DNA of 64,000 nt from a virus. The translations under genes and the position numbers were made by a program. How positions within the stretch are numbered: position 1 is the first letter of the stretch; each line of letters opens with the position of its first letter. Below the pieces are notes generated by a model. The model was not told the DNA's origin. It saw only the letters and a list, made by a program, of their open reading frames with translations, and made no database searches. The stretch is from positions 36,520-100,519 of IMG/VR virus record IMGVR_UViG_3300049844_000277; one strand, written 5' to 3'. Positions 18,301-62,261 of the stretch are shown here, one piece after another.

Positions 18301-20887
18301 CGATGAGTATGTCGTGAGGCATAACCTTCATGCCCTTCTTCACGACACCATTGGGGTCAAGCTTACGATACTGCTCTGCGGTATACTTCGACCCGTAGTA
18401 CTGCTGATGGATATCCCTGCCAACCTTGGAGTCGCGATCTACTTCAACAACTTCCTTGTACATATGCTCTGACGTTAACTTCTCGGCGGCGCCAGAGGAG
18501 ATAACGACGGCATCGTTGGAGTTCATTCCGTAATACGGAACGTACCCTACCGTCATATTCGTACCGAGAGCGAAGGAACCGTTGCGGGTAAAATTAGACT
18601 CCGCGAGCGGCTGATCCGCTTCTACCTTATCACCAGGCTTCACCAGAATGTCGTGATGAAGGTGTGTCTTAGATGCGAACGGAAAATTATTCTCGTATGG
18701 AACCCGAATCAAATCTTTCTCAGCAGCTACCTTTTCCCGATTACGCTCGGAGAGGTAGTCCTCTTTAAACTCATCCCAGGTATACTCATCCATGGAACCG
18801 TAGCCCCAAGGAGGACCGTGCTTCTCGTAAGCGCTTTTAGCGGCCTCTTTGGAATCGAAGCCAAGCATGCACTTGTCTTCGTCGTGAGACCCATCCTTCT
18901 TGCGCTGATGTACGACGTAAACATTATCGAAAGAACCATCTTCCTTCAGATAAACGTCGACCGTTTCACCGTCGTCGCCGACGGTCTTAGGAATGTGTCC
19001 GTAGGCCACGGACATCTTCTTTTCCCACTTCTCTCCTTCGGCGTTAGTGCCGGTACGAATATCTCCCGGTTCAAGCTCAATCTTAACGAGCACACCTTGA
19101 ACAGTCTTTTGACGCTTGACCGCCCCGCCTCGTTTCTCGAAAGCGCTCTTCTCGCTTAAGAAATCTTCAGCGTGCTTCTTTCCGCTAGGGTCGATGTAGA
19201 TGTATTGCCCATCAACCTTCACTACTTTGCCCGCTACAGGTGCCGTAGGAAGAACCAGCCCCGCGAGCTCCTTCTCCCAGCTTGAATGCTCAACACCCTT
19301 CTCAGTCAACTTATTGGCGGCTGATTGTACAAGAGGTGCTTCGCGATGAACGAGAGGAAGGGCTTGTGTTTGAACCTTACCACCCATGATGGCACGGTTC
19401 CCCTGCATCGACTCAAGGAACGGGACAAGGTTAGTTGCCGGAGAATACAACTGAGCCACGTCGTACAACTGGTGAGTCACCTTTGCCGCTGGTACGTGCT
19501 CCAACTGCCCTTTGTTCATTGCGGTGACCATTCCCGTAAGCTTTTGCTTAGGGAACGCCACGACCGCCTCGGACATTTGAGCCGCAGACAGCATCTCATA
19601 CTTACCGGACTTAATGTTCTTAGCTGCGGTGTAGAGATTTCCCGTAGCATCCCGGTGCGCCATCATCGCCGTGCGAATATCAATACCAGCGCGGAAGGAC
19701 TCAGACGTACGAACGGGGTCCAGTATCCCTAGATGACTCGAATGAATAGTACGCGCTTCAGCGGGAATCGCGCGCTCATTCGGAATACCTCCTTCGCCGA
19801 GAGATGTAACACGCACAGCGTGGTCGATGGCCTCCATCGGGTTGATGTGCGTGGGAATCGAGCTCAGTTGTGAACCCGTAAGAAAACTTCGGATGCCGGG
19901 CGAAAAGGGCGACGAAGGAAGAATCGCACGGAGTTCAGTCTTATGTGTTGCGCGACCCTTTACCTTATTTGCCAGGGCACGTGCATCCAGCGTTATACGT
20001 TCCTTGATAAAATCGTCTACCGAATGATACGTCTTGAAACGTAAAGCGTCACGATCATCAGTATCCGCATTATCCCGGTACACCTGTAATAGCCGCTTCG
20101 ACGCAACGAGTAGTGCCTGCGGCGTAACCGATGAAAAAGCGTGCCCCAAGGTTTGTTGGTTAACCTCGGGATCCATAGACGTAACAGCGTAAGCTGCTCG
20201 AATAGCATCAAGCTGTGTCTCAGGATTAGTCGCAGCACGTTTAGCCGGATGCACTACTTTCTCGTAAAGCTTATTCAAATGCTTATCGTGCTTACCTTCG
20301 AAAGCCGCCTCATTTTGATGAGCGACATCCGAGCCCCAATGAGTAGAAATATCAGCGTGCGGAACGCCTAATTTTCGAAGTACGGGGTAAAGCGGAATAG
20401 ATGTCGTCCCATACTCGATGTATGGATGTCCTTGGGCAGGGTCTAACGAAAGTCGAAAATTGGTTCCCTTCGACAAGTTAAAGGCGGCCTCTAGTTCCTC
20501 ATTTCCACGTCGCCGCGTATAGACGCCAGGCTTGAGCCGAAGTTGATTTGATACGTTGTACTCGTTACCGTCCAAAATAAAAGTATGCCGTCCTGTGAAA
20601 TAAGGAAGACTCAATAACGTAAAGTTCTTAACTTTCTCAACTTCTTTACCGGAAGCATCACGTAGTGTGACGGTTCCTTTTATCGGCTCAGAAAGAGAAC
20701 CACCGCTCAATAGCGCGTGCTTTTGATCGTTTGGGCCAAAGTCCTTTTCATGGACCTTCAGGTCACTGACCTCAATACTCTTATCCCGCAATGTCAGTGG
20801 AAAAGCGTTTCGCAACGCATCGAGCGCCTTTGCACGAATTTGAACTCGACGGGACTCGGCATCGGTAAGCACGGGAGTGAGCGACAT
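12377..20887 (-). CDS. rpoBC: DNA-directed RNA polymerase beta subunit fused to the N-terminal half of beta', interrupted by three inteins
   Basis: Beta motifs: FILDGNEYNVSNQLRLKPGVY, GEGGIPNERAIPAEARTIHSSHLGILDP, GNRAIMGGKVQTQALPL, VGDKL|TGRHGNKGVVS, GKMEFNALVAHNA. In the same frame follow beta' motifs: RWSHIELAEPVVNPVF, LPVLPPIMRPI, VNRAPTLHRYG, FNADYDGN|TFQIHVPV. Removing the three inteins (354+378+498 aa) leaves about 1606 aa. Confidence 0.9.
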   Translation of the reverse strand: MSLTPVLTDAESRRVQIRAKALDALRNAFPLTLRDKSIEVSDLKVHEKDFGPNDQKHALLSGGSLSEPIKGTVTLRDASGKEVEKVKNFTLLSLPYFTGRHTFILDGNEYNVSNQLRLKPGVYTRRRGNEELEAAFNLSKGTNFRLSLDPAQGHPYIEYGTTSIPLYPVLRKLGVPHADISTHWGSDVAHQNEAAFEGKHDKHLNKLYEKVVHPAKRAATNPETQLDAIRAAYAVTSMDPEVNQQTLGHAFSSVTPQALLVASKRLLQVYRDNADTDDRDALRFKTYHSVDDFIKERITLDARALANKVKGRATHKTELRAILPSSPFSPGIRSFLTGSQLSSIPTHINPMEAIDHAVRVTSLGEGGIPNERAIPAEARTIHSSHLGILDPVRTSESFRAGIDIRTAMMAHRDATGNLYTAAKNIKSGKYEMLSAAQMSEAVVAFPKQKLTGMVTAMNKGQLEHVPAAKVTHQLYDVAQLYSPATNLVPFLESMQGNRAIMGGKVQTQALPLVHREAPLVQSAANKLTEKGVEHSSWEKELAGLVLPTAPVAGKVVKVDGQYIYIDPSGKKHAEDFLSEKSAFEKRGGAVKRQKTVQGVLVKIELEPGDIRTGTNAEGEKWEKKMSVAYGHIPKTVGDDGETVDVYLKEDGSFDNVYVVHQRKKDGSHDEDKCMLGFDSKEAAKSAYEKHGPPWGYGSMDEYTWDEFKEDYLSERNREKVAAEKDLIRVPYENNFPFASKTHLHHDILVKPGDKVEADQPLAESNFTRNGSFALGTNMTVGYVPYYGMNSNDAVVISSGAAEKLTSEHMYKEVVEVDRDSKVGRDIHQQYYGSKYTAEQYRKLDPNGVVKKGMKVMPHDILIAGVTRGKLSASDALLGNLKKTLVTPYRELVRTWDHDFEGEVMDVYVTDKRVVVTVKTREPMRVGDKLCYDAETEVLTWEGWKPIADVRITDKICTLQNGENIEYLEPDAIHSYPEGGRMYRIESQQVDLFVTDGHHMYVQPRNEKSFQLLPAYEIAGKRVSYKKDGIWVGHSPESFVFDSITVRAGQGGRGLRVLDDKALPTKTLAALLGAFLSEGNLITIEESGTYGIEITQINQPNRKQLEKFLREEGILFTDTGDKVRIHSKQYWQYFKQFGKSYEKFIPLEVFAWSRADQETLFNWLMWGDGHTKNGQPICYKTTSKRLADDVQRLALHIGKAANVSLAKAEGYQTIKGKDFWCRDYWQVRIINSKLTPTVNHGHIKRQKGQVECFVDSYKSPVYCVTVPGHVLYVRRNGKSVWCGNTGRHGNKGVVSLIVPDHKMLQDETGKPIEVLYTSAGVISRINPSQILETCVAKVAKKIGKPIVVENFSGRDNVQWAKDLLKEHKVKDKETLIDPVSGKKIPGILVGPQYVLRLFKTTETNYAARGTGAYDVNQQPIKGGDEGAKAVGKMEFNALVAHNARNVLRETAAIKSQKNDEFWRAIQLGLPLPPLKSSFVYDKFIGMLHGAGVKVDSRGSISTLSPLTDKDILRMSSGEVQNEKLVRAKDLAAERGGLFDPAVTGGTTGTRWSHIELAEPVVNPVFADPARRLLGMTAKDFDQYHHTNGGAAVKKKLNAIDVKARIAELRNSIKSLSGTKLDDAVKQLKFLEALNRQELKPGDAYVLSKLPVLPPIMRPILPGKSGSELVVGDSNYLYQSAILHNQSLRKQIESPILPPDEQAKLRQNLFHAVGAVIGTHESDNPKLQKRNVKGFLEHITGKTTPKCYDDQTDILTEKGWVRFSKYTGKTRVATVNLDTREFEWQKPTALVSMPFDGDLIHTRSRELDLCVTPNHEHVVSYRRKRVSNGKALYVWTPWEKVRADTFIGTDRRRVMVSAEEWEGTFPELVFAGDTCEVSTDNKKRRTANLVGTFTPDPLAFAEFVGWWIAEGWISTTGTQVSLCQAATSPHVRAVDLCFKKLDIPFVRKTYTRKDGYQVIWWTIRLRSLADWLTHHCGRGCESKHLSSDILAWPSAMLEGLLRGYLRGDGTLHPSLAKNVKNPKTHYRRKPLSAHAGTASLQLIDDLQHLAAKIGYQVIFRGICPPVKDHHLPHYLFSVRGFSDVTIESGSFTEAYPYKGTVYCVTVPNGTVVVRRNGKPSVSGNSSFFQKRIMKRQQDISGRGTIAPDGSLSMDEIGIPIDMLWGMYGKFIISRLIRRGFGAIQAKEMLEKKHPAAHDALMAEIKERPVMVNRAPTLHRYGFIGAHAVPVAGKTIRVNPFAELGFNADYDGNCFLGSTKVVLTAEGAACKALLGDEAKETAMKFAAETRVCWTSAVQALVEAELQEIPHAEEPYSIDKNGARSYAVPEGFRVLSYDHSASKSVMSPVTGLTIEDGCEVAKVEMRRGLSVTASTNESLCIYNHETGQIEATAPSDSVGKLAPVVRHLPLTGSQGDFEFGWMVGAFLSDGFLLGETDHYFGYTKVSDVHRERFAAAVNAFEGKLIKRNTYREVHDASNGITGQSIKDHFSGAQKCVELFKTCYLDERVPGRSCLSKRVPAFGDWSEEARWGVLIGMLNGDGTLTVSAGKAKLQVMAALHTSSAALAASLRFLLQTIGVRCSVSEAYPKEGRLQKAVAYTIPISTVDLQRNVSWLRRGIWNNSKSLEALNLLEADELVDQVDIVPVPKNLMTLASSRTGPCAEDSSFCASLATLRSKRKEAPYVTRQNARRMLHFFRTAKTPDVDAWARIVENVGITWDLVESVEVLRKETVYDLIVPDTQIFAVNDGLVVWDTFQIHVPVLKPAIDEVKGMTLSNLLFSDREKDSLMVAPRMEAMLGVHLASKAESSANDKVRHFKNREEALAAYKRGEITLNTRVEVGT
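12644..14137 (-). mobile_element. Intein 3 (498 aa, LAGLIDADG type) inside the catalytic NADFDGD-type motif of beta'
   Basis: Junctions are FNADYDGN|CFLGSTKVVLTAEG... and ...VYDLIVPDTQIFAVNDGLVVWD|TFQIHVPV. Dodecapeptide motifs are MVGAFLSDGF and LIGMLNGDGT. The C-terminus is atypical (Trp-Asp instead of His-Asn). Confidence 0.75.
14522..15655 (-). mobile_element. Intein 2 (378 aa, LAGLIDADG type) in beta' N-half
   Basis: Junctions are ITGKTTPK|CYDDQTDILTEKGW... and ...VVVRRNGKPSVSGN|SSFFQKRIMKR. The site corresponds to the bacterial LLGKRVDYSGRS region. Dodecapeptide motifs are FVGWWIAEGW and LRGYLRGDGT. Confidence 0.8.
17039..18100 (-). mobile_element. Intein 1 (354 aa, LAGLIDADG homing-endonuclease type) in beta, inside the GDK..GRHGNKG motif
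   Basis: Junctions are VGDKL|CYDAETEVLTWEGW... and ...LYVRRNGKSVWCGN|TGRHGNKG. Dodecapeptide motifs are LLGAFLSEGN and WLMWGDGH. Confidence 0.85.
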
Positions 20888-29439: not shown

Positions 29440-29789
29440 GCATGAAGTGTACTCGTTGTCACCGCGAAGACATCCTCGAGCTGGAGACGCTCGCGGAAGC
29501 CACTGCTCTGGAGGAGCACCAGAAGCGTAAGGCGGTTGTGCTGAAGAAGCTCAAGGACTTCGTAGGAAGTCTTCCCGCAGAAGACCTCCCGGATTTCTTC
29601 GCGGTCCTAGGGGACAAGGTTCTGATTCACGACTACCTGTGCGACCCACAGGATGACTCAAAGCGCTCCTGCGCTAGTCGCGTAAGTGACTTGCTCGCGG
29701 GTGTGAACGAACTCGGCGAGCGTAAGCCGAGAACGAAGAAGGAAAAGGAAAAGGAAAAGGAAAAGGAAAAGACTCCGCAAGCGGCGTAA
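29424..29789 (+). CDS. Hypothetical protein with C-terminal (Lys-Glu)n tail
   Basis: ORF of 121 aa ending ...RKPRTKKEKEKEKEKEKTPQAA. Confidence 0.45.
   Translation: MAIKMSMKCTRCHREDILELETLAEATALEEHQKRKAVVLKKLKDFVGSLPAEDLPDFFAVLGDKVLIHDYLCDPQDDSKRSCASRVSDLLAGVNELGERKPRTKKEKEKEKEKEKTPQAA
29741..29770 (+). repeat. (GGAAAA)x5 microsatellite inside the coding sequence
   Basis: Five perfect hexamer units encode the KE repeat. Confidence 0.9.
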
Positions 29790-34128: not shown

Positions 34129-34167
34129 CCGCACGAGCTACTCGTGCCCACAACCCGAGGAGCTCTC

Positions 34168-37100
34168 ATGGAGAAGCCCGCAGAAATCTGCAGCGGATGT
34201 CCTCGAGAAATCGAGACAGAGACCCATCCCTACGGTTATGTTGAATCGTGGATTGATTCAAACGCCGAACTCATCATCATAGCGGAAGCTCCTGTCTGCG
34301 ATCGCCACGGTAACGTTCCTAGCTCTTTCGACGATGACAGCGGTAAAATCATTCGAACCGCCGTATCCGAGCTACGTAACTTACCTTCGCACAGTAAGCT
34401 AGCGGTCTCGTATACGTACGCAGTACTCTGTACAAGCAACCAGGGCGACAAAGACCCCGAAAAAGCCGTACTGCAACGGTGCCGTACGCTGCTCCAAGCT
34501 GACTTACGTCGCGCAAACAAGAACGCCGTCCTGCTGGTAATGGGTATGTCTGCCCTTCGCGCACTAGAAATAAAAGCCGCGAAGTTGAAGGACATGCAGG
34601 GGCGATTACTCCAAAAGCAGAAAATTGGAGAAGGTGATGACGCTCCGATATTCGATGTCGTCGTAACCGTCTCGACAAAACAGTTGTTCGCGATGCCGGG
34701 AATCTACACGACGTTCGTAGCGGACCTGCGACGAGCTGCGGACGCTGCGAGCGCAGGTGGATTAACACACGTTACCCCACTCGAAAAACTAACCGAAAAA
34801 TACGTAATCCCGAAAACAATCGAAGAAGTACGCCAAATCTGTCGCGAAATACTGAATTATCAAGAAGGTAAAGTATCTGCAGATAACTGGCCTATCTCTG
34901 TAGACACCGAGACAAACACCAAGTTTCCACACCGAGAAAACTTGAAAGTATTGGCGGTGTCCTTCGCATGGGCGGAGGGTAAAGCTACTGCAATTCCATT
35001 AGAGCACCCCACTACACCCTACGCGTACCAAGACGCGATACCGTACGTACGCGAAGTCTTAGCGAGCAAGAAGCCGAAGTTCCTTCATAATGCTAAGTTC
35101 GACCTTAAAGTCTTCATGAAAGCGGGCTGGCCGATTAACGGGTTCGCTTGGGATAGCATGCTAGGGGAACATGCTCTCGAAGAAGATAAAAAGGGACAGT
35201 ACGGATTAAAGCAGTTGACCCGTACTTTCTTCCCGGAATTCGCGACATACGCCGACTCTCTTCAAGAAATGCTCACGCACGAAGAGGGCGACTCGCAGCT
35301 CGACAACCTGAGGAAAGCGCCAAAAGCTTCAACTTCGAAAGATGGGGGATTTGAAAGTATCCCACTTCCCACGCTATTGCTTTATGCGGCAGTCGATGCA
35401 GATATGACACGGCGGCTAGTGTTACTGCAGGAAAAAAGAATTACCGACGAGCAGAACAGAGTAATCGTAGAAACGAATATAACGAAGAGAGAGCAGGCGC
35501 TGGCGATTTCGGCGAGGAAGAAAATACGGCTGAGAATTGCGCCGCTACATAGTGAGACGGAGATGTTGAAGAAGTACATGGTGCTCTACCCCGTCCCAGA
35601 ACTCTGTTCCGCTGATAAGCCGGTAAGACAACTAGTACTGAACAACGTATTCCCCGTTACCCCAGCTCTCGCGAGAATGGAGTTTAAGGGCATACGGATA
35701 GACAGACCGTACCTAACTACGTTGCGTGAAGCGTTGGGAAAAGTCGTCACAGAAACCGCTGCAGAGCTACAGGATATGGCGGGCAGAGAGATAACTCTCA
35801 ATAGTCCGGCAGAGATAGCTGAAATCCTGTTCAACAGCGGGTTTATACATCCAACAACTCACGCCCCCACGACTTATCCCCTCACAGGCATCGGTAAGAC
35901 AAAAACGGGACAGATACAAACCACCGAGAAAGTGATGCAGTACTTGGTGGCGAAGTATCAGTGCCCCTTTGCAGCTAAAAAACTAATCTACGCCAAGGCA
36001 TATAAAGCGAAAAATACGTTCTGTCAGAATGTGTGGGATCTCTCGGAGCTCGACGGGTATCTACACACGAACTACAACCAGCACGGCACAAATTCGGGTA
36101 GACTGTCCTGTGTCGCGGGAGAAACCGTACTAGATACTAATTACGGAAAAATCGAGATACAGAATCTCGATCTGGAGAAGATGCCGGGGATTACCATCCA
36201 GACCCACGAACTCCGCGAACAACCGATTCTACGTAAAATAGAAAAAGGCATTGAAGAAATGTTCGAGGTCGAACTCGAAGACGGGCGCACCATCACCGTG
36301 ACTAAAAAACATCGCTTCTTGACGCCGACGGGGTGGAAACGACTCGAGGAACTGTCAGAAAATGCCGAAATACTCTGCGCCGCCTCCGTGGGTAGTGGAC
36401 CAAATATGCGACTCGTTACAACCCGGATAAAAAGCATACGTCCCGTAGGTCCTAAGAAAGTCTGGGACCTCACAGTAGCGGTCGATCACTCTTACATCGC
36501 CCACGGATTTGTTAACAAAAATTCCAACGATGAAAACATGCAAAACATCCCCAAGAAATTGGCGGGTGTTAACATTAAGAAAGTGTTCCTCCCGGACGAT
36601 GATTCGTATGTCTTCGTCAACGCTGATGCGAAGGGTGCCGAAGTACGAATCCTAACCGCCTACTGCCGAGACCAAGCGCTCATACAATCGCTCAACGCGG
36701 GGCAGGACACGCATTGTTTCATCGCGTCCAAGATTGTTGAAATCGTACGTCAGAGTCCTGGTGCAACGGCGGTTCTCGGAAGCATGAATCTAAGCGATGA
36801 GTATCCTCTGACGTACGAAGACTTCGCGGCTAGAGACAAGCTAAAAGAAACCAATAGTAAGTACGGGGCGATGCTCGACAAATTCAGAACCGCTGTCAAA
36901 CGCGTAGTGTTCGGTATTCTGTACGGCGCCGGTCCTCAGAAAATTGCGGAAACTATTGGTATCAGTCTAGAGCAAGCACAACAGCTCATTCACACTCTGT
37001 TCGCTTTGTTTCCGTCCATCAAGACGTACATGGCGCAGACAAAGTGGGAACTACAACAATTTAATTTAGTCGAAACGTTCTTCGGTAGACGCCGTAGATT

Positions 37101-37527
37101 TAGTGTATCGGGAGCGCCGAAGTATCAAATAGGGAGAGCTGAACGTCAGACAGTTAATTTTAAAATCCAAAGCACAAGCTCTGATATCGTAATGGGACGA
37201 TTACTAGCAATCGAAGAACCTCTCAAAGATTTGGGAGGTAGACTTCTATTGACAGTGCACGACAGCCTTGGGTTTCAAATCAAGAAAAAATATATCCGAC
37301 AGCTACCTGATTTCATTTATACGTATTTGGAGAAGGGTGCAGCAGACGCCCATCCATGGCTCCCAGTCGCATTTAAATGGGACTACGAAGTTGGGTCATC
37401 ATACGGCGAACTCAAATCACTGGAATCCTACCTTGCCAACACGAAAATAGAGGAATACTCGAACGATGCCTACGTCGCCGAGGCTTTCACAGAAGAAGAC
37501 GCAAGAACCTCCCTCTCCGAACCCTGA
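34168..37527 (+). CDS. polA: Family-A DNA polymerase with N-terminal UDG-family-4-like domain and 3'-5' exonuclease domain, interrupted by a mini-intein
   Basis: UDG-like: LIIIAEAPVCDRHGNVPSSFDDDSGKII. Exo I/II/III: SVDTETN, HNAKFDLKVF, YAAVDADMT. Pol motif A: VFVNADAKGAEVRIL; motif B: RTAVKRVVFGILYGAG; motif C: LTVHDSLGF. ATG 34168 follows GAGGAG; the track ORF begins at GTG 34144. Confidence 0.9.
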   Translation: MEKPAEICSGCPREIETETHPYGYVESWIDSNAELIIIAEAPVCDRHGNVPSSFDDDSGKIIRTAVSELRNLPSHSKLAVSYTYAVLCTSNQGDKDPEKAVLQRCRTLLQADLRRANKNAVLLVMGMSALRALEIKAAKLKDMQGRLLQKQKIGEGDDAPIFDVVVTVSTKQLFAMPGIYTTFVADLRRAADAASAGGLTHVTPLEKLTEKYVIPKTIEEVRQICREILNYQEGKVSADNWPISVDTETNTKFPHRENLKVLAVSFAWAEGKATAIPLEHPTTPYAYQDAIPYVREVLASKKPKFLHNAKFDLKVFMKAGWPINGFAWDSMLGEHALEEDKKGQYGLKQLTRTFFPEFATYADSLQEMLTHEEGDSQLDNLRKAPKASTSKDGGFESIPLPTLLLYAAVDADMTRRLVLLQEKRITDEQNRVIVETNITKREQALAISARKKIRLRIAPLHSETEMLKKYMVLYPVPELCSADKPVRQLVLNNVFPVTPALARMEFKGIRIDRPYLTTLREALGKVVTETAAELQDMAGREITLNSPAEIAEILFNSGFIHPTTHAPTTYPLTGIGKTKTGQIQTTEKVMQYLVAKYQCPFAAKKLIYAKAYKAKNTFCQNVWDLSELDGYLHTNYNQHGTNSGRLSCVAGETVLDTNYGKIEIQNLDLEKMPGITIQTHELREQPILRKIEKGIEEMFEVELEDGRTITVTKKHRFLTPTGWKRLEELSENAEILCAASVGSGPNMRLVTTRIKSIRPVGPKKVWDLTVAVDHSYIAHGFVNKNSNDENMQNIPKKLAGVNIKKVFLPDDDSYVFVNADAKGAEVRILTAYCRDQALIQSLNAGQDTHCFIASKIVEIVRQSPGATAVLGSMNLSDEYPLTYEDFAARDKLKETNSKYGAMLDKFRTAVKRVVFGILYGAGPQKIAETIGISLEQAQQLIHTLFALFPSIKTYMAQTKWELQQFNLVETFFGRRRRFSVSGAPKYQIGRAERQTVNFKIQSTSSDIVMGRLLAIEEPLKDLGGRLLLTVHDSLGFQIKKKYIRQLPDFIYTYLEKGAADAHPWLPVAFKWDYEVGSSYGELKSLESYLANTKIEEYSNDAYVAEAFTEEDARTSLSEP
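36109..36522 (+). mobile_element. Intein 5 (138-aa mini-intein, no endonuclease domain) in DNA polymerase
   Basis: Junctions are TNSGRLS|CVAGETVLDTNYGKI... and ...HSYIAHGFVNKN|SNDENMQNIPK. The spliced sequence restores the PolA (T/S)GRLSS....QNIP motif. Confidence 0.8.
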
Positions 37528-44251: not shown

Positions 44252-45946
44252 ATGTTGGGAAGTGAGCCAGCATACTTCTTAAAGGATATCCAAAAAATGT
44301 CAAACCAGCCTGAACAAGAAAATGCACTCCAGAAATCGATGGTTTTCTGGGTGTCCCGCCGAGGAGCCTCTAACTACTGGGCCTCGGTCGTGAATGGAAT
44401 GAATAAGAGGTTCTCTAACGACGAAGGAACAATGTCGGTGCAGCTCACAGAGAACTGGAAATATATCCTCACCTGCCATCTTCCAGCGTTCGAATCGTGG
44501 TCGCCGAGAATGCGACTACTTGCTCTCGTTCACGAATGCGCTCACGTAGTTCTTCAGCACATTCCCCGGCTGTTCAAGATGTTGGCCAATTGTACAGACC
44601 CGTTCGTACGCACAGCCATCACATCGACGTTCAACTTCGCAGCAGACTTCGCGGCGAATGACGCAATCGTTCGACTTGAAGACGGATTCACAGAAGCGCA
44701 CAAAGCCTTCATGCACGTCAGTCCAGACGGAAAGCCGATTCCTCTCTCCAAAGAAGAAGAGGAGAAACTTCCCGGTGAATGGCCATTTCTTTTGCCAGAA
44801 GAATTTGGACTACCTCGTGGAAAGACAATGGAAGAGTACTTCGTGCTCATCCTCAAGGACCTCCCGAAGTTCAAACAACACGTCGAGGAGATGATGAAAA
44901 ACCTCGAACGTATTCTGAGTGAAATGGGGGAAGACTCCGAAGGAGAAGGAGAGGGAGAATCAGAGGATGGAAGTGGCGGCCAGGGAAAATCTCCCTCCCG
45001 TCGAAACATTCCACCTAAAGGGATTCCCGGCATTCCCGACGAAATCGTCAAGCACGCTCTCAACTCACCAGAGACCTTCGAGATGTTGCAGAAGGCCTTT
45101 GATAAGATTTCCAGTAAAGCACACAAGCAGTGGAACGAAAAAGCAAAGGAGATGACACCTGAGGAAGCAATCTCTGCGGGCAATAAGCTCAAGAAGCACG
45201 CGCAGACGATGGTCAGGGCCGCGAATGACCGCGTAAAGAGAGACCGCGGATTCATGCCCGGCGGAGTCCAGAAGATAATTGACGCGCTGATGGAGCCGGA
45301 CCAGATTCCCTGGGATTCAATTCTTCGAGACATCATTCACGGAGCAATAAGCGCTCGCGTTCAAGAGGAGATGGTCTCTCCGAATCTGTCTCTCATCAAC
45401 GAAGACTACTTGGAGCCGTGGCCTGGGCAAACATTGGAATTTGGCTTCAACATCACCTGGATGACCGATACCTCTGGTTCGATGGGTGATAGTGAATACG
45501 CGCGGGCGTGTAACTGCATGAACTCGCTGCTTGCGCAGAACAAGTTCGTATCCGTCACATACTGCGAGTGTGACGCCATCATGCAAAAGGAGGTGAAAGT
45601 CACAAACATCGAACCGCTCACAGAGGAATACTTGAGCGAGCTCCGTACACGCCGAGGATATGGAGGAACTGTCTATACGCCGTTCTTCAAGCGCGTAATG
45701 GGTGCGGATGAACCTCGGGATTGGATTGATGGCGCACCACGACTAGAGGATGCGCATCCCAAACCGGACTTAATGGTAATCTGCACGGATGGTGGCGTTC
45801 GTCTCATGGGAGAATGCTTCCCGAAGTATCGGCCAGAATGTCCCATCATCTGGTTGTTGATGCCAGGCTGCCATGCTACGACCGGAATGGATGATGTCGC
45901 GCCGGACCGGTTGATTCAGATGTATAAAATGCGGGAGGAGGAGTAG
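44252..45946 (+). CDS. HExxH metallopeptidase-like (DUF2201_N-type) plus VWA-like domain protein
   Basis: LALVHECAHVVLQH (HExxH). MIDAS-like WMTDTSGSMGD. GYGGTVYTPFF and LMVICTDGG. An acidic linker lies between the domains. Alternative start at ATG 44297. Confidence 0.65.
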   Translation: MLGSEPAYFLKDIQKMSNQPEQENALQKSMVFWVSRRGASNYWASVVNGMNKRFSNDEGTMSVQLTENWKYILTCHLPAFESWSPRMRLLALVHECAHVVLQHIPRLFKMLANCTDPFVRTAITSTFNFAADFAANDAIVRLEDGFTEAHKAFMHVSPDGKPIPLSKEEEEKLPGEWPFLLPEEFGLPRGKTMEEYFVLILKDLPKFKQHVEEMMKNLERILSEMGEDSEGEGEGESEDGSGGQGKSPSRRNIPPKGIPGIPDEIVKHALNSPETFEMLQKAFDKISSKAHKQWNEKAKEMTPEEAISAGNKLKKHAQTMVRAANDRVKRDRGFMPGGVQKIIDALMEPDQIPWDSILRDIIHGAISARVQEEMVSPNLSLINEDYLEPWPGQTLEFGFNITWMTDTSGSMGDSEYARACNCMNSLLAQNKFVSVTYCECDAIMQKEVKVTNIEPLTEEYLSELRTRRGYGGTVYTPFFKRVMGADEPRDWIDGAPRLEDAHPKPDLMVICTDGGVRLMGECFPKYRPECPIIWLLMPGCHATTGMDDVAPDRLIQMYKMREEE

Positions 45947-46652: not shown

Positions 46653-46682
46653 CAGTCCTCCTCCCCCTCCCCTTCCCCCTCT

Positions 46683-52275: not shown

Positions 52276-52614
52276 ATGTCTGACTGCTCTTCTTCTTCCC
52301 TTCCCTCCCCTTCTTCCCTTCCCTCTTCTTCTTCCCCTTCTTTTGACGCCGACATTCTGGCCGATGCCGAATCACGCGAGTACAACGAGTTCCTTCGCCG
52401 CGCTTACCTCCGCCGACGAATAGATAAACCTGGCTCTCGGTTAATCGGATACGGCGGCATGCCGAAGAATGACCAGCAAGCGAGATTCGGGCCCGCGATT
52501 TGGGAGTTTACGCCGGAGATCGCCAATATGGCGGCGCGGTATGCTTCTTATGTGCAGGGTCGGTACCTCCGATATCTCCGCGTCCGTCTTCCCCCACGAC
52601 ATCGGGAGTCATAG
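52276..52614 (+). CDS. Hypothetical protein (start uncertain; the 5' part is a Ser/Pro-rich translation of a C/T tract)
   Basis: Track ORF 52219..52614. The 5' ~90 nt is a polypyrimidine tract that may be non-coding. Confidence 0.3.
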   Translation: MSDCSSSSLPSPSSLPSSSSPSFDADILADAESREYNEFLRRAYLRRRIDKPGSRLIGYGGMPKNDQQARFGPAIWEFTPEIANMAARYASYVQGRYLRYLRVRLPPRHRES

Positions 52615-52619
52615 TCACA

Positions 52620-53651
52620 ATGGAACGTGCGTACGGCGTAGCAATTGCCTCCATCTATTTGGAGAAGCTGAAGTATCACGTCTTTCCTATTCGGCAGATA
52701 CTCGGAATAACGACTGGAGAACCCCGCTGTGACTGTACGGATGAAACGTGTCCGAACGTCGGAAAACATCCGCGAGTAGCGTGGTCTAAGAATACTGCGA
52801 CCGCGTCTGCTTGGGAACGTTGGCCAAATGACGGCTTTGGAATCGCAACAGGTGCGCGTTCGGGTATTTGGGTCTTGGATGTCGACCCGAAGAATAACGG
52901 TCCGGAGACACTACGGGTGCTCGAGCAGGCTCCAGGGCACGCTCCATTACCCAGGACAATAACCGTAAAGACGGGCTCGGGAGGGGAACATTACTACTTC
53001 CGATATCCTGGTCCGAATTACCGTAACACCGCCGGTGCGCTCGGGTTGGGACTAGACACGCGTGGTGACGGTGGATTCGTCGTTGGGCCTGGGTCACTGC
53101 ACAAGAGCGGGCGACGGTACACGTGGAAGCATGGGCCCGCCGATGCGCCGCTCGCCGATCCGCCTGAGTGGTTGCTCAAGTTGGTGAAGCAAACAGCCAA
53201 ATACCGGCGAGACGTGAACGTTGAAAAACAAGGGCTGCACACAGCACCTGTCCCACGCGCAGAGGCGGAATATCTTCTCGAAATAATGTTGGACCCGGAC
53301 TGCAGGCTAACGCAGTGGATGCGCACGTCTCCCGACGACGTCAGCCGAGAAACGTGGCGAGGATTTGCGACAAACCTCGCTTGCGCTGTAGTCGATCATC
53401 CTGAGTTGATCGAAAAAGCCTGCGAAGCGTTCCACGAAATCTCGTCCGGATATTCGCGCTATAAGGTTTCTGAAACGGAGCGAGTATTTAGAGATTCCGT
53501 AACAGTTGCACGGGTTTACGGCCCAATGTCGTTCGAGCACATGGTGAGGTCAGGAATGCCCTCAGAGCACGCTATTCCTCCCCACGCAAAAAACTTGTTG
53601 CACTCCGCGCAGTTGGAGATGCGGAGAAAAAGGCCTCGCAAGTCGGATTGA
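52620..53651 (+). CDS. Bifunctional primase-polymerase (Prim-Pol, archaeo-eukaryotic primase superfamily)
   Basis: YHVFPI...GKHPRVAW...GFGIATGARSGIWVLDVDPKNNG...TVKTGSGGEHYYFRYP...GLDTRGDGGFVVGPGSLHKSGRRYTW. ATG 52620 lies right after the upstream stop and a GGGAG. Confidence 0.8.
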   Translation: MERAYGVAIASIYLEKLKYHVFPIRQILGITTGEPRCDCTDETCPNVGKHPRVAWSKNTATASAWERWPNDGFGIATGARSGIWVLDVDPKNNGPETLRVLEQAPGHAPLPRTITVKTGSGGEHYYFRYPGPNYRNTAGALGLGLDTRGDGGFVVGPGSLHKSGRRYTWKHGPADAPLADPPEWLLKLVKQTAKYRRDVNVEKQGLHTAPVPRAEAEYLLEIMLDPDCRLTQWMRTSPDDVSRETWRGFATNLACAVVDHPELIEKACEAFHEISSGYSRYKVSETERVFRDSVTVARVYGPMSFEHMVRSGMPSEHAIPPHAKNLLHSAQLEMRRKRPRKSD

Positions 53652-53826: not shown

Positions 53827-55728
53827 ATGCTGCTGCCTAGTCCTGCTGAGGTCAAAGAACTAATCGTCTCTGCAGCCTTTCAAAGCGATGCGTTCATCGT
53901 GGCAAAAGGCGAAAAGACGCAAACAATGAAGGATATAGAAGCTGAAAAAGCGGCCCACGCAATGGCGGCCCGTCAGTCTAGTGGTCTACCACAAAGTACA
54001 AACGCACTTCAAACTTCGCCAAACCCGGACCCTGCGCCACCTCCCGTAGTGGAGAAGTTGGCCGGGGTTCTTAAGTTCCTAATCCAGAATGACCCCGTAC
54101 TGCTAGCAAAAACGAAGATTGAATTCAAAAAGCATTTCACAGGAGTCCTGACAAAGGGAAAGCTCATCTTAGAGCCTCTTTGTGACTCCCTCTTCGATTC
54201 AGCATCGGCCGAAGACATCACCTACAAAGAATTACGTAAGTTGGGAATGCATCGGGGCGGGCAGATACCCGGCGTGGAGACGTTGGGCCGGTGGATTCGA
54301 AGTGAAGCGTATAGCCAGTGCGTACCCAACGGACCACTGACCGATGACTACGTCTCCTTAATAGTCTTACTCACGCTCGACCCTGAGCTTCTAAAGGGCA
54401 AGCTGGAGTGGGACGATATGAACAAGGCTATTACGATTAACAGAGAACCTATTGATTTAGCAAAGACAGTAAGTCGAATCCGTACGCAGATAGGGGATAC
54501 TTACTCTCAGGAAGTCGGACGCTTACGTAAAATGCGTCGAATCGTCCCCTCACATCAATCTGTAGAGCAAGCCCTGGAAGCCCTGGCGAAGGAAAATCCG
54601 TTCCACGCAACGAAAGAATGGATGGACGCGCTCCCTGCGTGGGACGGCGTCGACCGCATGCTTCCGCTCCTAAAGGCTATCAGAGGCTGGGTGGATACGT
54701 CTGCCATTGACATGCCGCAACATATAAAAGAAGAGCACGAAAGGATAAACAACCTAGCGCTGAAACAGCTAACCAAAACACTCATCGGCACGGTAGCTAG
54801 AACATACGAGCCCGGGTGTCAGATGGACACGATGTTAGTGTTAAAATCCAAGCAGGGGACCAAGAAATCCACATTATTCCGCGTACTGGCACCAGCAGGT
54901 AGGTTCTCGGCATCGCACGGTGAATTCGGGACTAAAGACTCCCGAATGGTATACACGAAGAATACCTGGGTAGAGATTGCGGAACTGAGTGGGATGCAAC
55001 GCAAAGAAATACAAACAATCAAAGCTGAAATCAGTGACCGCAGTGATGACTTCCGACCACCGTACGCTAAAGCTATCATCAATAACCCTAGGTGGTGCGT
55101 GCTCGTAGGGTCTACGAACGACGATAAGTTCCTGAAAGACCAGTCGGGGTCGCGTCGATTCTGGATTATCGTCATAGGAGACGACACGAAGGCGGATATG
55201 GTCTTCGTGGAGAACAATAAGCCACAGCTATGGGCACAGGCGGTGGCTCTCTATAAGGCTGCCCCTATGTGCCAGGACTGCCTCGCGCGGGCCGATGGGG
55301 AGACCCGCTGCCCGACGCACCGCTGGTGGCTTACCGACGAGGAGGACAGCTTCAGAGAGAAGTACAACGAGAACTTCACGGAAGTGGAACCCTACGTAGA
55401 GGCGCTCAGGGACTGGATGAGCAGCGCAATCTCGGACCGTCGTTCGTCGAAACAGGGGCTACACACGGCGGTAAAAAATACCGACCACATGACGGTCGCG
55501 CAATTTCTTCAGGAGGTCATTATGCTACCGCCAGAGAAGGTTTTTGATCGAATCCAGCAGGATAGAATGGCCCGAGCACTCAAAATTTGCGGATACACTA
55601 AAAAACACACAGAACACGGAAATATTTGGATAAGTCCAGGAATGCGCAATAGACCAGATTTGAAATTAGTCGCTAAAGAAAAAACAGAGGCGGTATCGGA
55701 GAATTTGACAAAAACGTCGGAACAATGA
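53827..55728 (+). CDS. VirE / D5-like primase-associated P-loop helicase
   Basis: Walker A reads LKSKQGTKKSTLF. Also WVEIAELSGM, FRPPYAKAIINNPRWCVLVGSTNDDKFLKDQSGSRRFWII. AAGAGGAG RBS. Confidence 0.75.
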   Translation: MLLPSPAEVKELIVSAAFQSDAFIVAKGEKTQTMKDIEAEKAAHAMAARQSSGLPQSTNALQTSPNPDPAPPPVVEKLAGVLKFLIQNDPVLLAKTKIEFKKHFTGVLTKGKLILEPLCDSLFDSASAEDITYKELRKLGMHRGGQIPGVETLGRWIRSEAYSQCVPNGPLTDDYVSLIVLLTLDPELLKGKLEWDDMNKAITINREPIDLAKTVSRIRTQIGDTYSQEVGRLRKMRRIVPSHQSVEQALEALAKENPFHATKEWMDALPAWDGVDRMLPLLKAIRGWVDTSAIDMPQHIKEEHERINNLALKQLTKTLIGTVARTYEPGCQMDTMLVLKSKQGTKKSTLFRVLAPAGRFSASHGEFGTKDSRMVYTKNTWVEIAELSGMQRKEIQTIKAEISDRSDDFRPPYAKAIINNPRWCVLVGSTNDDKFLKDQSGSRRFWIIVIGDDTKADMVFVENNKPQLWAQAVALYKAAPMCQDCLARADGETRCPTHRWWLTDEEDSFREKYNENFTEVEPYVEALRDWMSSAISDRRSSKQGLHTAVKNTDHMTVAQFLQEVIMLPPEKVFDRIQQDRMARALKICGYTKKHTEHGNIWISPGMRNRPDLKLVAKEKTEAVSENLTKTSEQ

Positions 55729-55788
55729 ACTTATTAAAAAACAATAGGTGTAAGCAAGTTTCGGGCCAACAAACTTTTTCAAAAATTC

Positions 55789-56125
55789 CTGAAAGGGGCG
55801 TTCAGCCGCAAATGTCCGTAATTACTAAAACTCGAAGAAAAACCTGAACAGGCTGAATGCCCTGACATGGTGCTTCTTATATAAGCATGGAGTAACAGGG
55901 GTATTACTGACCCACCCTGGGTCATTTTTGACGGACACTGGGTATAAAGTTCAGAAACATATTCAGGGTATTCAGGTATTCAGTTATCCAATAAAATCAA
56001 GTACTTAGAACGAAAAATGGCTGAATACCCCCTGAATATCCCCCCCTATGGCACCAGAATTGCTTGTGCGGTCAAAATCGAACTTTCTGGGCTATTTTCT
56101 GGGCTATTATTTTGTTCAGTATTCC
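55789..56125. repeat. Iteron-like array built on a TTCAG/CTGAA core
   Basis: Three direct (A/G)TATTCAG units lie at 55959-55983. Two inverted units, CTGAATAC and CTGAATAT, lie at 56021-56039 across an AT-rich spacer. CTGAACAGG-CTGAATGCC-CTGACATGG lies at 55844-55870, and further TTCAG/CTGAA copies lie at 55789, 55801, 55950 and 56115. Confidence 0.6.
56085..56108 (+). repeat. Perfect tandem duplication TTCTGGGCTATT x2
   Basis: Read directly at 56085-56096 and 56097-56108. Confidence 0.9.
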
Positions 56126-56436
56126 TTTTAACCAAATGCCCGAACTGGCGAACATTGATCACGTGCCATCCCGCGCGCCCAACATTGATCCCGTGCTGTC
56201 CGAGCCGACCCTCAGCGGGGTCAAGCTCCCGTGCTGTCCGCGCCAGCCTCCGGCCGGCCCCGCTTCCGCAAGGGAAACCTTCCCGACGTCCCGACGAAGA
56301 CTATACCCTAGCCTAGCCTTATCCTCCACCCCCGTCCCCACTCTCGCTGTAGCCGTAGATTTCCTGGCAAGTCTCGCCAAAGGCCTCCAGCGGGCCGTAG
56401 GACCGACGAACCGGCGTAACCCGGTCCGACCCCTTG

Positions 56437-56482
56437 CCCGACCCCCGAACGTCGCTCCTGCGCCCGCCTAGGCCCCTTCCCG
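56437..56482 (+). repeat. 46-bp exact direct repeat, copy 1 (C-rich island)
   Basis: CCCGACCCCCGAACGTCGCTCCTGCGCCCGCCTAGGCCCCTTCCCG. Confidence 0.9.
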
Positions 56483-56561
56483 CCGGTCCGCCGAATCCGC
56501 CTCAAACCGCCCTGAGTGGCCTCCAGGCGCTCAAACGCCCCAGACCCGACCCAAGACCCTA

Positions 56562-56607
56562 CCCGACCCCCGAACGTCGCTCCTGCGCCCGCCTAGGCCC
56601 CTTCCCG
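56562..56607 (+). repeat. 46-bp exact direct repeat, copy 2
   Basis: Identical 46-mer located 125 bp downstream of copy 1. Confidence 0.9.
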
Positions 56608-56645
56608 GCCTAGACTCGAGGGGAACTCTCGCCGGGAGAAGACCC

Positions 56646-56870
56646 TTGAAGCCCCTACCCGCCCTGACGCTTCGCGACGTCCTCAAGAACGAAATTGAAA
56701 ACGATCGACGGAACGTCGAACAGATTTCCGTCTCTCGCCAGGATTCAGTTAACCGTTCAATCGCCATATGTGCGCGCCGGTACATCGAAGCGCTGGACTT
56801 TGGCGATGAAACGTTGTTGTTTGATGCCGAAGATAATTTGCGGCTTGCGCTTGATAACGTTCGTTCTTGA
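56646..56870 (+). CDS. Hypothetical small protein (TTG start, uncertain)
   Basis: ORF of 74 aa with protein-like composition (…RDVLKNEIENDRRNVEQISV…). It contains no ATG. Confidence 0.3.
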   Translation: MKPLPALTLRDVLKNEIENDRRNVEQISVSRQDSVNRSIAICARRYIEALDFGDETLLFDAEDNLRLALDNVRS

Positions 56871-56888
56871 TTATTCGCTTACTTCAAA

Positions 56889-57446
56889 ATGTTATTTCTC
56901 GGAGTCGATCAATCACTACGCAGCTCCGGAGTGGCTGTCATTTCCGAGGAACAAGAATCTGTCTATCTTGGGCGTATAGCCCCTGCTAAGCTTTCAGATG
57001 CACCAAGGTTGGCTGCAATAAGAGACGCATTACAGACACTCATTACTACAACACCAGACATCCGCTTTGCCGCGCTAGAAGGGTACGCGTATGACGTTGG
57101 CGCTGGTAGAGTGTTTGAGCTGGGTGAAGTTGGCGCTGTTGTTAAGTTGGCGCTTTATGACGCTAAAATCCCGTTTATCGTCGTTCCGCCGGCCTCTCTA
57201 AAGCAATTCGTAGCTGACCACGGCAACGCCAATAAGACGCAAATGCGGATATCTGTATTACGTCGTTGGGGTTATGACATTACCCAGGACGACGAATGTG
57301 ATGCCTTTGGTTTGGCGCAAGTCGCTAGAGCTGTACACCTTAACAAGGGCACGACTCGCTCCGAACTCGAAGTACTGAAGAAGCTACGTACAACAGACAA
57401 GAAGGTTTCTTTAGTCAGCTTCAAGACCCGATTCCCTTCCATCTAA
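56889..57446 (+). CDS. RuvC-like Holliday junction resolvase (phage type)
   Basis: MLFLGVDQSLRSSGVAVI (first Asp), ALEGYAY (Glu), DECDAFGLAQVA (Asp..Asp). Confidence 0.7.
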   Translation: MLFLGVDQSLRSSGVAVISEEQESVYLGRIAPAKLSDAPRLAAIRDALQTLITTTPDIRFAALEGYAYDVGAGRVFELGEVGAVVKLALYDAKIPFIVVPPASLKQFVADHGNANKTQMRISVLRRWGYDITQDDECDAFGLAQVARAVHLNKGTTRSELEVLKKLRTTDKKVSLVSFKTRFPSI

Positions 57447-57458
57447 GAGAATAAGAAT

Positions 57459-57659
57459 ATGCGTTGCTCCAACTGCGAATCCCCGATGAAGGATGTCGAC
57501 GGTATGACTGTTCGGCTTAATAAGGACAATACAGCCCTCACGCATCTCTGCGGTGAGTGTATCTCAGGAGTTTTGACGCTTAAGATTGTCTTGTCCCGTC
57601 AGCGGGCGCAGGATTCGTTTACGTTTTCTGGTTATTTGCCGGTAGCGTCGGAGAGGTGA
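57459..57659 (+). CDS. Small zinc-ribbon protein
   Basis: CSNCES ... CGEC in 66 aa. Confidence 0.4.
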   Translation: MRCSNCESPMKDVDGMTVRLNKDNTALTHLCGECISGVLTLKIVLSRQRAQDSFTFSGYLPVASER

Positions 57660-58955: not shown

Positions 58956-59867
58956 ATGTCTGCTCAAATTGTTCCGTTTCAGTTCGAAGGCGAAGAAGAA
59001 GTTCGAGTCATCATGAAGAACGGAGAGCCGTGGTTCGTTGCTTCAGACCTGTGTCGGGTCCTGGACATCAAGGACGTCTCCGTCGCCGTACGTAACTTCC
59101 CGGAATCACTGATTGGTCGGTGTTTAACACCGACGAGCGCGGGGGAGCGAGAAGCCATTACCCTCAGCGAAGCCGGCATGTGGCGGCTGGTCATGCGCTC
59201 CGACAAGCCCAAGGCCCTCGAGCTCCAACAGTGGCTTTCGGAGCACGTACTTCCGAGTATTCGTAAGACCGGTGTGTACTTTGCCGGGATTTCTCCTGAA
59301 TCGCTGAAAAGCCAGCGCGTTCAGCACGCTATTCAGCTCGTACACCTCACTGCTGAATTCGAGTTAGCACAGGAGCAACTTAACGAACATACCCGGCAAC
59401 TGATTCGGCAGAATCAGGCTCTCAATAAGCATGAACAACAGTTGAAGACCCTCGAAGAGACAACGGCCATCATCGACGACTACGTCACCATTAAGGGAGC
59501 CGCAAAGAAGCTCGGGGTACGCATCGATTCAACTCTCGCTGGAATGATGGGTAAAGTCGCAGCGACCCGAACTAAGCAGCGGGGGTTACTCATTCGAGAT
59601 GTTGCTGATTTACAACACGGAACAGTGCACGCATATCCTCGAGAAATCGCGGAAGAGGCAGTGCTGTTTGTAACGGCGAATGAACCACAGCGGCTCATCG
59701 AAAAACAAGAAGCCGCAGCGAAGAGGGAAGCGAAGAAGCTTGAGCAGATGAAGGAGGAAGCTAGCGCAGTTCCTACTTCTAACGGAGCGTCGAAGCATAG
59801 GCTCCAATTTATCGATCTTCCGGATGACGCATTTTTGAAGGAAGATGATAAGTCGACCATACAATGA
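58956..59867 (+). CDS. BRO-N domain protein (antirepressor-like)
   Basis: QIVPFQFEGEEEVRVIMKNGEPWFVASDLCRVLDIKD...WRLVMRSDKPKALELQQWL. AAAGGAG RBS. Confidence 0.7.
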   Translation: MSAQIVPFQFEGEEEVRVIMKNGEPWFVASDLCRVLDIKDVSVAVRNFPESLIGRCLTPTSAGEREAITLSEAGMWRLVMRSDKPKALELQQWLSEHVLPSIRKTGVYFAGISPESLKSQRVQHAIQLVHLTAEFELAQEQLNEHTRQLIRQNQALNKHEQQLKTLEETTAIIDDYVTIKGAAKKLGVRIDSTLAGMMGKVAATRTKQRGLLIRDVADLQHGTVHAYPREIAEEAVLFVTANEPQRLIEKQEAAAKREAKKLEQMKEEASAVPTSNGASKHRLQFIDLPDDAFLKEDDKSTIQ

Positions 59868-62122: not shown

Positions 62123-62183
62123 TAGTCTCGACTTCACTAAACCGTCTGCTTCACCAGCGCGGTAGACCTTGGGGTTTAGTGAA

Positions 62184-62256
62184 CTCCCCGAGTAGGACTC
62201 GAACCTACGACCTAGCGATTAACAGTCGCTCGCTCCACCAGCTGAGCTATCGGGGA
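62184..62256 (-). tRNA. tRNA-Asn (anticodon GTT)
   Basis: The reverse complement folds as TCCCCGA-TA-GCTC-AGCTGGTG-GAGC-G-AGCGA-CTGTTAA-TCGCT-AGGTC-GTAGG-TTCGAGT-CCTAC-TCGGGGA-G. The 7/4/5/5-bp stems are perfect, the T-loop is TTCGAGT, and CCA is not encoded. Confidence 0.9.
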
Positions 62257-62261
62257 AGATG

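Follow-up and report, generated by a model that had tools for sequence, protein, structure and literature searches.

What is a stretch of some five hundred nucleotides, rich in C and apparently devoid of genes, doing between the helicase and Holliday junction resolvase genes of a large phage? The question is raised by positions 56130–56645 of a 64,000-nucleotide (nt) stretch of DNA, hereafter the window (positions 36,520 to 100,519 of IMG/VR virus record IMGVR_UViG_3300049844_000277), which stems from an uncultured phage of ~190 kb. This island lies in a 917-nt gap with genes for an archaeo-eukaryotic type primase-polymerase (Prim-Pol) and a VapE-family helicase upstream, and the small open reading frame ORF74 and a RuvC-like resolvase gene downstream. 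A preliminary description, made from the sequence of the window alone, had pointed out its unusual composition and a long direct repeat, and had considered a genome terminus or concatemer junction, a structured or i-motif-prone regulatory element, and captured foreign DNA. The reading we favour, with slightly better than even confidence, is that the island constitutes the expanded GC-rich non-coding right flank of the phage's likely replication origin or control region.

The island spans 516 nt with a GC content of 0.68, made up of 0.44 C and 0.24 G, and 100-nt windows over 56150–56699 vary between 0.55 and 0.75 in GC and between −0.18 and −0.42 in GC skew. When the 64 kb are scanned in steps of 500-nt segments, GC (0.688, compared to a mean of 0.506 with a standard deviation of 0.036), the fraction of C (0.448, compared to 0.261 with a standard deviation of 0.032) and skew (−0.30) all reach their extreme in the segment that begins at 56176. 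The island is therefore as strongly C-rich and strand-asymmetric as had been described, and the two runs quoted for it, CCCGACCCCCGAAC and CCGGCCGGCCCCGC, are both found in the sequence. The term 'foreign', which had been applied to it, is apt for its base composition; as a statement on the provenance of its DNA it finds no support, as detailed below. The direct repeat likewise withstands inspection: an exact 46-mer occurs in two copies only, at 56437–56482 and 56562–56607, 125 bp apart (chance expectation 0), and is embedded in a 64-nt repeat of 89% identity with the same spacing of 125 nt. No significant similarity was found between the sequences flanking one 46-mer and those flanking the other (p 0.24 and 0.44), indicating that a discrete module of ~55 nt was copied; on the same grounds, a decayed 125-nt tandem duplication was rejected. 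The shorter unit reported for 56150–56250 is present as well, as AACATTGATC(A/C)CGTGC..TCC at 56151–56171 and 56181–56201 with 86% identity, next to an additional repeat pair at 56189–56219 and 56227–56257, and the island holds the small tandem units TCCCGACG (two copies) and CCCAAGACCCGA (2.2 copies). The rest of the island shows no similarity to the remainder of the window. The short direct repeats can be summarized as follows:

56151–56257, plus strand: short direct repeats, AACATTGATC[A/C]CGTGC twice and TCCCGTGCTGTCCG twice, aligning to a conserved block of the family, ..GCC..CCGGC..CATGGGTC.GTGC.GAA

The island does not encode protein. Its period-3 signal (z −0.4) is absent when compared to the 3′ end of the helicase gene (3.3), ORF74 (2.4) and RuvC (8.1), and the two 46-mer copies, being 125 nt apart, fall into different reading phases. 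The reading frames predicted here do overlap on both strands and are rich in Pro, Arg and Ala, and the view that they are chance frames is borne out, as they lack homologues. None matches an entry in Pfam or PHROG; tblastn searches in both directions against 12 related loci yielded a counterpart for ORF74 alone and for no frame of the island; and the longest of these frames, with 135 amino acids (aa), returned no match from a phmmer search of 1.84 billion representative proteins. A conserved homologous protein, named at the outset as the observation that would speak against a non-coding island, was thus sought for all of these frames and found for none.

The origin of the island becomes apparent from related genomes, a comparison that the preliminary description had recommended. 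In 11 relatives, whose helicases are 48–62% identical to that of the window, the corresponding gap measures 462–555 nt and carries its blocks in the same order. It ends in a GC-rich segment of 99–157 nt (GC 0.64–0.73, which is 7–13 points over the background of the locus), and this segment closes with one conserved motif of ~35 nt, G(A/T)(A/T)CGTCGY..C....CGC.GGG.CC. Each relative has a single copy of the motif, always on the plus strand, located 426–510 nt after the helicase stop codon and 33–75 nt before the next start codon, whatever gene follows. The 46-mer of the window aligns to this motif, and the window contains three copies of it, one of them inverted, compared to one in the relatives:

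56385–56412, minus strand: inverted motif copy (GGTTCGTCGGTCCTACGGCCCGCTGGAG), with 9.6 bits the best match in the window to a hidden Markov model (HMM) of the motif
56437–56482, plus strand: copy 1 of the 46-mer, an extra motif copy with its motif core at 56446–56480
56562–56607, plus strand: copy 2 of the 46-mer, the positional counterpart of the relatives' motif, with its GAACGTCG core (56572) 74 nt upstream of the ORF74 start

The HMM had been built from nine relatives only and was scanned over the whole window on both strands; its three best matches fall at 56385–56412 (minus), 56571–56589 (plus) and 56446–56464 (plus). Among 1,000 dinucleotide-preserving shuffles of the island, none reached 7.9 bits, and the 99th percentile was 4.2. 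The inverted copy is additionally recognized by blastn, with 79–81% identity to the motif of the related loci L053 and L016. Neither the motif core nor the HMM match recurs elsewhere in the 64 kb or in the 7–14-kb loci of the relatives. Judged by sequence and position, the island is homologous to the GC-rich segment of the relatives, present with its motif at the same site in all of them, and has been enlarged in one lineage to 3–5 times their length. While the whole-genome GC content is 50.6% for this phage and 55–62% for the relatives, the island stands at 68%, 18 points above its genome, indicating that its GC-richness was retained and has not drifted to the genome composition.

Conservation of the motif does not extend to a fold. 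RNAalifold predicted no pairs for the motif; in the conserved block that precedes it, the only pairing predicted was a GCC/GGC stem of 3 bp, which is invariant, with no covarying pairs. DNA folds of 12 motif instances shared no hairpin (z −1.0 to +1.7, with one at −2.5), folding of the island was no better than that of shuffled sequence on either strand (z −0.2 and −0.04), and an Rfam scan of 55000–57500 at E ≤ 10 gave two chance-level matches, neither within the island. Conservation of the DNA sequence in the absence of a conserved structure points to recognition by a protein, rather than to an RNA or a hairpin; a structured non-coding RNA was consequently rejected, there being no Rfam family in the island, a fold z-score near 0 and no covariation.

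If the motif is a protein-binding site, the remainder of the gap suggests in which process it might take part. The part to the left of the island has the following features:

55795–56120, both strands: iteron cluster of CTGAAYR words, holding 9 of the 45 matches in the window within 321 nt, where ~0.2 are expected
55908–55929, plus strand: terminator-like hairpin, TGACCCA-CCC-TGGGTCA followed by TTTTT, found by a consensus scan and lying within the iteron region
55995–56007, plus strand: site AATCAAGTACTTA matching the consensus of integration host factor (IHF), in an AT-rich trough and one of 3 matches in 64 kb
56084–56107, plus strand: perfect tandem 12-mer TTTCTGGGCTAT, two copies, between the last iterons and the island

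The CTGAAYR words are located at 55844, 55853, 56021 and 56032 on the plus strand and at 55799, 55960, 55969, 55977 and 56113 on the minus strand. The relatives have words of their own at homologous positions, and in loci L010–L024 each repeated 7-mer is nearly confined to its gap: CTGAACC in L014 (9 of 10 matches of the locus), CTGACTA in L019 (5 of 5), GTGAAGG in L023 (5 of 6) and GTGAACA in L011 (4 of 5). Lineage-specific repeats at conserved positions beside a helicase gene are what would be expected of iterons that bind an initiator, and they also permit a co-variation test between the DNA-binding part of each helicase and its iterons. The AT-rich trough, with a GC content of 0.34–0.45 over 55650–56100, is found in all relatives, and the hairpin at 55908–55929 aligns with their conserved ..TGGTCATTTT block. 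The consensus for IHF is WATCAANNNNTTR; scored against it, L010, L011, L013, L053 and L054 each have a single match in their locus, at the homologous position. Much more distant phages (loci L002, L003 and L004; 28–32% identity) have sites matching the same consensus shortly after their VapE helicase genes, which hints that the layout of an origin following the helicase gene is widespread. Of the elements by which an iteron origin is recognized, a repeat cluster, an adjoining AT-rich segment and a neighbouring initiator or helicase gene are found here.

Based on this layout, we infer that the gap probably acts as an origin, and one can envisage how its parts would cooperate. The VapE-family helicase, presumed to be the origin-binding initiator, would bind the phage-specific iterons at 55795–56120, and an IHF-type bend together with the AT-rich trough would let the DNA open. 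The GC-rich flank would then bound the opening and carry, in the conserved ~35-nt element, the site of the next site-specific step. Most likely, the element would be a specific site at which the Prim-Pol/helicase pair is loaded or primes synthesis, or it might instead be the promoter or operator of the downstream operon; we regard the two roles as about equally open. In the lineage of the window, the flank would have grown from ~100–160 nt to 516 nt by local duplication and inversion of the element, along with filler rich in C-tracts, and part of the additional ~360 nt may be neutral.

Several observations weigh against this interpretation. Each HMM match to the motif is by itself marginal when judged against the whole window (E 0.1–0.4), and the motif has no conserved hairpin and is found at one locus per genome. 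The GC-rich flank of iteron plasmids is 27–29 bp long, while that of the relatives measures 99–157 nt and the island 516 nt. The relatives do not share the strong C-skew, the ratio of C to G being 1.82 in the island and 0.83–1.5 in theirs, so that some 360 nt of the island may be filler without a function. Finally, the phage seems to have a general tendency to grow simple strand-biased tracts, as suggested by pyrimidine tracts of 27 nt (46656–46682, plus strand) and 58 nt (52287–52344, plus strand) and a purine tract of 38 nt, (GGAAAA)n, at 29735–29772 (plus strand); no simple tracts of this kind were found in the loci of eight relatives. The first of these tracts directly follows a stop codon and is itself followed by a terminator-like hairpin, and the second lies upstream of Prim-Pol.

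The genes on either side of the gap are:

52500–53651, plus strand: Prim-Pol gene (Pfam PF09250, E 3.8e-36)
53827–55728, plus strand: VapE-family helicase gene (Pfam PF05272, E 8e-55; PHROG DNA helicase/primase families)
56646–56870, plus strand: ORF74, with a TTG start and GGGAG 9 nt upstream, a conserved small gene directly upstream of RuvC
56889–57446, plus strand: gene for the RuvC-like Holliday junction resolvase (PF02075, E 2e-8; phrog_159, E 3e-31)

ORF74 is a real gene: tblastn detects it, with 46–53% identity and E-values of 1e-16 to 5e-18, as the gene preceding RuvC in L014, L015, L016 and L021. In the relatives L010, L011 and L013–L016, two to ten small genes intervene between the gap and the ORF74–RuvC pair, among them a DUF4031 gene in L011 and L054, while none does so here, which makes this stretch a hotspot for the gain and loss of genes. 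The window further encodes a family A DNA polymerase, the large terminase and a fused β/β′ RNA polymerase. The last is a single chain of 2836 aa (12377–20887, minus strand) with β (Rpb2_3, Rpb2_6) and β′ (Rpb1_1, Rpb1_2) domains, matches to LAGLIDADG and intein-splicing domains and an InPase-like insert, and a separate gene (9086–10885, minus strand) specifies a 599-aa protein with Rpb1 domain 5. The phage thus encodes its own RNA polymerase of the multisubunit type, which is apparently fused and interrupted by inteins. The DNA polymerase (1127 aa, 34144–37527, plus strand) matches an intein-splicing domain at residues 678–793. Other genes in the window include those for an HNH-endonuclease-like protein of 564 aa (44252–45946, plus strand), a Bro-N domain protein (58956–59867, plus strand) and tRNA-Asn(GTT) (62183–62257, minus strand).

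No close relative of the phage was found in INPHARED. Except for identical copies from the same phage, no helicase relatives above 62% identity were found, those of 48–62% identity being located on metagenomic contigs of up to 187–190 kb. GTDB genomes contain no close relative of the helicase by which a host could be identified.

Among the alternatives to an origin flank, the one that survives best, and which we regard as possible though rather unlikely, is that the island is the promoter or operator and 5′ leader of the ORF74–RuvC operon. The motif would then bind a transcription factor or the multisubunit RNA polymerase of the phage, and its extra and inverted copies would be additional or divergent control sites; such a role is compatible with the presence of an origin. 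The position of the motif is in line with this proposal, as it precedes the first start codon beyond the gap by 33–75 nt in the relatives, irrespective of the gene, and, for copy 2 in the window, the ORF74 start by 74 nt. For a phage with its own β/β′ RNA polymerase, hexamers of the σ70 type are not expected, and none were found. Against it stand the variable distance between motif and start codon and the confinement of the motif to this one place in the 64 kb and in the relatives' 7–14-kb loci, which is at odds with a general promoter. A general promoter was in fact rejected, given that motif core and HMM recur nowhere else and that σ70-like sites are missing; in a check by eye, the spacing required of a σ54-like site was not matched either.

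Less probable still is that most of the island represents a neutral, lineage-specific expansion, caused by slippage or illegitimate recombination in GC-rich repeats, with any function residing in copy 2 alone. The relatives manage with 99–157 nt and one motif, neither the C-skew nor the C-tracts are conserved, and both the small tandem units TCCCGACG and CCCAAGACCCGA and the strand-biased tracts elsewhere in this phage, which its relatives' loci lack, would fit such a process. It accounts less well for the fact that the 46-mers are identical despite flanks without significant similarity, that the inverted copy retains the family consensus, and that the sequence is 100% identical across four assemblies.

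The C-tracts themselves could be the functional feature, if the island were an element prone to form G-quadruplexes (G4), i-motifs or R-loops, in which the G-rich minus strand or a leftward transcript helps to open or prime the origin. The tracts are distributed as follows:

56420–56446, 56538–56559 and 56643–56664, plus strand: patterns of four runs of at least three C with loops of at most 7 nt, of G4 type on the minus and i-motif type on the plus strand

Three of the four canonical four-tract patterns in the 64 kb sit at the island, five of the twelve window regions with an absolute G4Hunter score of at least 1.5 fall within 56021–56667, and the skew is strong and sustained. Yet such tracts are to be expected from the composition, single-strand folding is no better than for shuffled sequences, a leftward transcript would lack a known promoter, and the homologous gap of none of 12 related loci contains a four-tract pattern. 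We consider this explanation improbable. The earlier idea of a structured, i-motif-prone regulatory element holds in broad terms with respect to a regulatory or structural DNA element, and the C-tracts do cluster, but, being absent from the gaps of the relatives, they are not the feature that is conserved.

Capture of foreign DNA, either from a host or mobile element or by recombination with a GC-richer related phage, appears very unlikely. The island does exceed its genome by 18 GC points, the small genes between gap and ORF74 found in relatives are missing here, and the inverted motif is closer to the variant of L053 and L019 than to the direct copies of the phage itself. But homologues of both the motif and the GC-rich segment are present at the same site in all relatives, neither terminal inverted repeats nor target duplications were seen, the island resembles no other part of the window, and no donor could be found: blastn with 55700–56900 gave no match among the 50,697 phage records of INPHARED, and the suggested nucleotide search with the 46-mer, for which we used its core, gave none in IMG/VR or in 185,579 GTDB genomes.

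At a slightly lower probability again, C-rich plus-strand RNA from the island might form a Rho-utilisation (rut) region, ending read-through from the helicase operon. The region is untranslated, and the C/G ratio reaches 2–3.4 in 78-nt windows over 56254–56389 and 56426–56618. However, G amounts to 14–31%, so that the RNA would not be G-poor, windows with C/G of at least 2 are common in the genome (90 regions on the plus strand), and two relatives have a C/G ratio below 1; moreover, a canonical intrinsic terminator is already present upstream at 55908–55929 and the phage has its own RNA polymerase.

The assemblies bear on whether repeat and island are real and on whether a genome end is located here. 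Both copies of the 46-mer recur with 100% identity in an independent JGI assembly (L009), showing that the repeat did not arise as an error of a single assembly, and the sequence of the island is 100% identical in four assemblies. Three assemblies do break in or at the island, L061 ending at 56466, L007 starting at 56578 and L008 starting at 56645. The first two are Logan contigs of SRR35532809 whose overlap with the 46-mer is exactly 30 nt in each case, as expected of a k=31 assembly-graph branch at a two-copy repeat; the contig breaks at the 46-mer are k-mer artefacts, not a genome end. The 46-nt repeat thus explains the assembly breaks at 56.4–56.6 kb, and short-read graph reconstructions of this phage will fragment at its copies. 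With L009 and the window itself spanning the region, the homologous gap internal to the relatives' contigs of 171–190 kb (at ~80–103 kb in four contigs of 187–190 kb) and the terminase gene 16 kb off, the genome terminus, pac or cos region or concatemer junction that had been proposed can be set aside as highly improbable.

If the island indeed is the flank of an origin, this places both the origin and a candidate control or priming element in an uncultured family of ~190-kb phages that carries a Prim-Pol, a VapE helicase, an intein-bearing DNA polymerase A and a fused β/β′ RNA polymerase. The iteron words, the IHF site and the 35-nt motif would then be concrete sequences for binding, priming and origin-cloning work. 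Most likely, the island is an origin flank of an ordinary type that became enlarged in one lineage, and its general significance is modest.

Among known origins, that of the IncQ plasmid RSF1010 offers a parallel to a conserved site of this length. At its oriV, RepC iterons are combined with GC-rich and AT-rich segments, and the plasmid provides its own initiator, its helicase and the primase RepB′, which has an archaeo-eukaryotic fold (PMC8567376). Beside the iterons lie ssiA and ssiB, two unusually long sites (~40 nt) at which priming is sequence-specific; they are present in single copy and placed on complementary strands (PMC8567376), as the ~35-nt sites of the window occur on both strands in a phage with a Prim-Pol. 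By analogy, the motif might be such a priming site. But ssiA and ssiB have a defined hairpin at nt 7–27, while no conserved hairpin is found in the motif; the relatives of the window have a single plus-strand copy, there is no sequence similarity between the systems, and the GC-rich part here is 100–500 nt long. One may go further and suppose that the motif is a linear, non-hairpin start site for Prim-Pol and the VapE helicase, analogous to ssiA and ssiB and present here in a three-site arrangement on both strands, within a C-rich tract prone to form G4, i-motifs or R-loops. We regard this as doubtful, giving it less credence than a neutral expansion and more than a role of the C-tracts by themselves. 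If true, the three sites would change the firing of the origin, for example its directions, and a priming-site origin would for the first time be defined in a large phage with its own RNA polymerase.

The position of the gap has a counterpart in plasmid pRN1 of Sulfolobus, whose origin is located directly downstream of the prim-pol/SF3-helicase gene orf904, and similar loci have been proposed for phages (PMC4234260). In pRN1, an essential non-coding origin follows the 3′ end of this gene after a terminator-like hairpin (PMC4234260), comparable to the hairpin at 55908 and the conserved non-coding blocks that come after the helicase gene in the window. The pRN1 element, however, is a stem-loop of ~100 nt that is conserved in structure and not in sequence, in contrast to the window, where sequence is conserved without covariation and iterons are present.

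Concerning the succession of repeats, AT-rich and GC-rich DNA, iteron-type theta origins such as RK2 oriV also have an AT-rich region next to a short GC-rich one. In pMOL98, the origin likewise comprises iterons, an AT-rich region and an adjoining GC-rich region (PMC9499019). The window resembles these plasmids in that repeats, AT-rich DNA and an adjoining GC-rich segment lie by an initiator gene, along with a site matching the IHF consensus. It differs from them in belonging to a ~190-kb phage that encodes DNA and RNA polymerases of its own, and no DnaA boxes were identified in it, although no systematic search for them was made.

Phage replication modules offer a further comparison, and the origins of staphylococcal pathogenicity islands lie 3′ of the rep gene. 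The Streptococcus thermophilus phage Sfi21 has a non-coding ori-like region in its replication module (PMC6356513), and the relatives of the window helicase in databases include VapE-family helicases from Streptococcus phages, albeit distant ones with less than 35% identity. At both loci, a phage primase/helicase module contains or adjoins a non-coding region with repeats (PMC6356513). In Sfi21, neither a GC-rich expansion nor a 35-nt motif has been reported, and origin function is supported by experiment, while for the window it is proposed from sequence comparison. Measured against all of these origins, what sets the present locus apart is the length of its GC-rich part, its linear 35-nt motif and the triplication of this motif on both strands.

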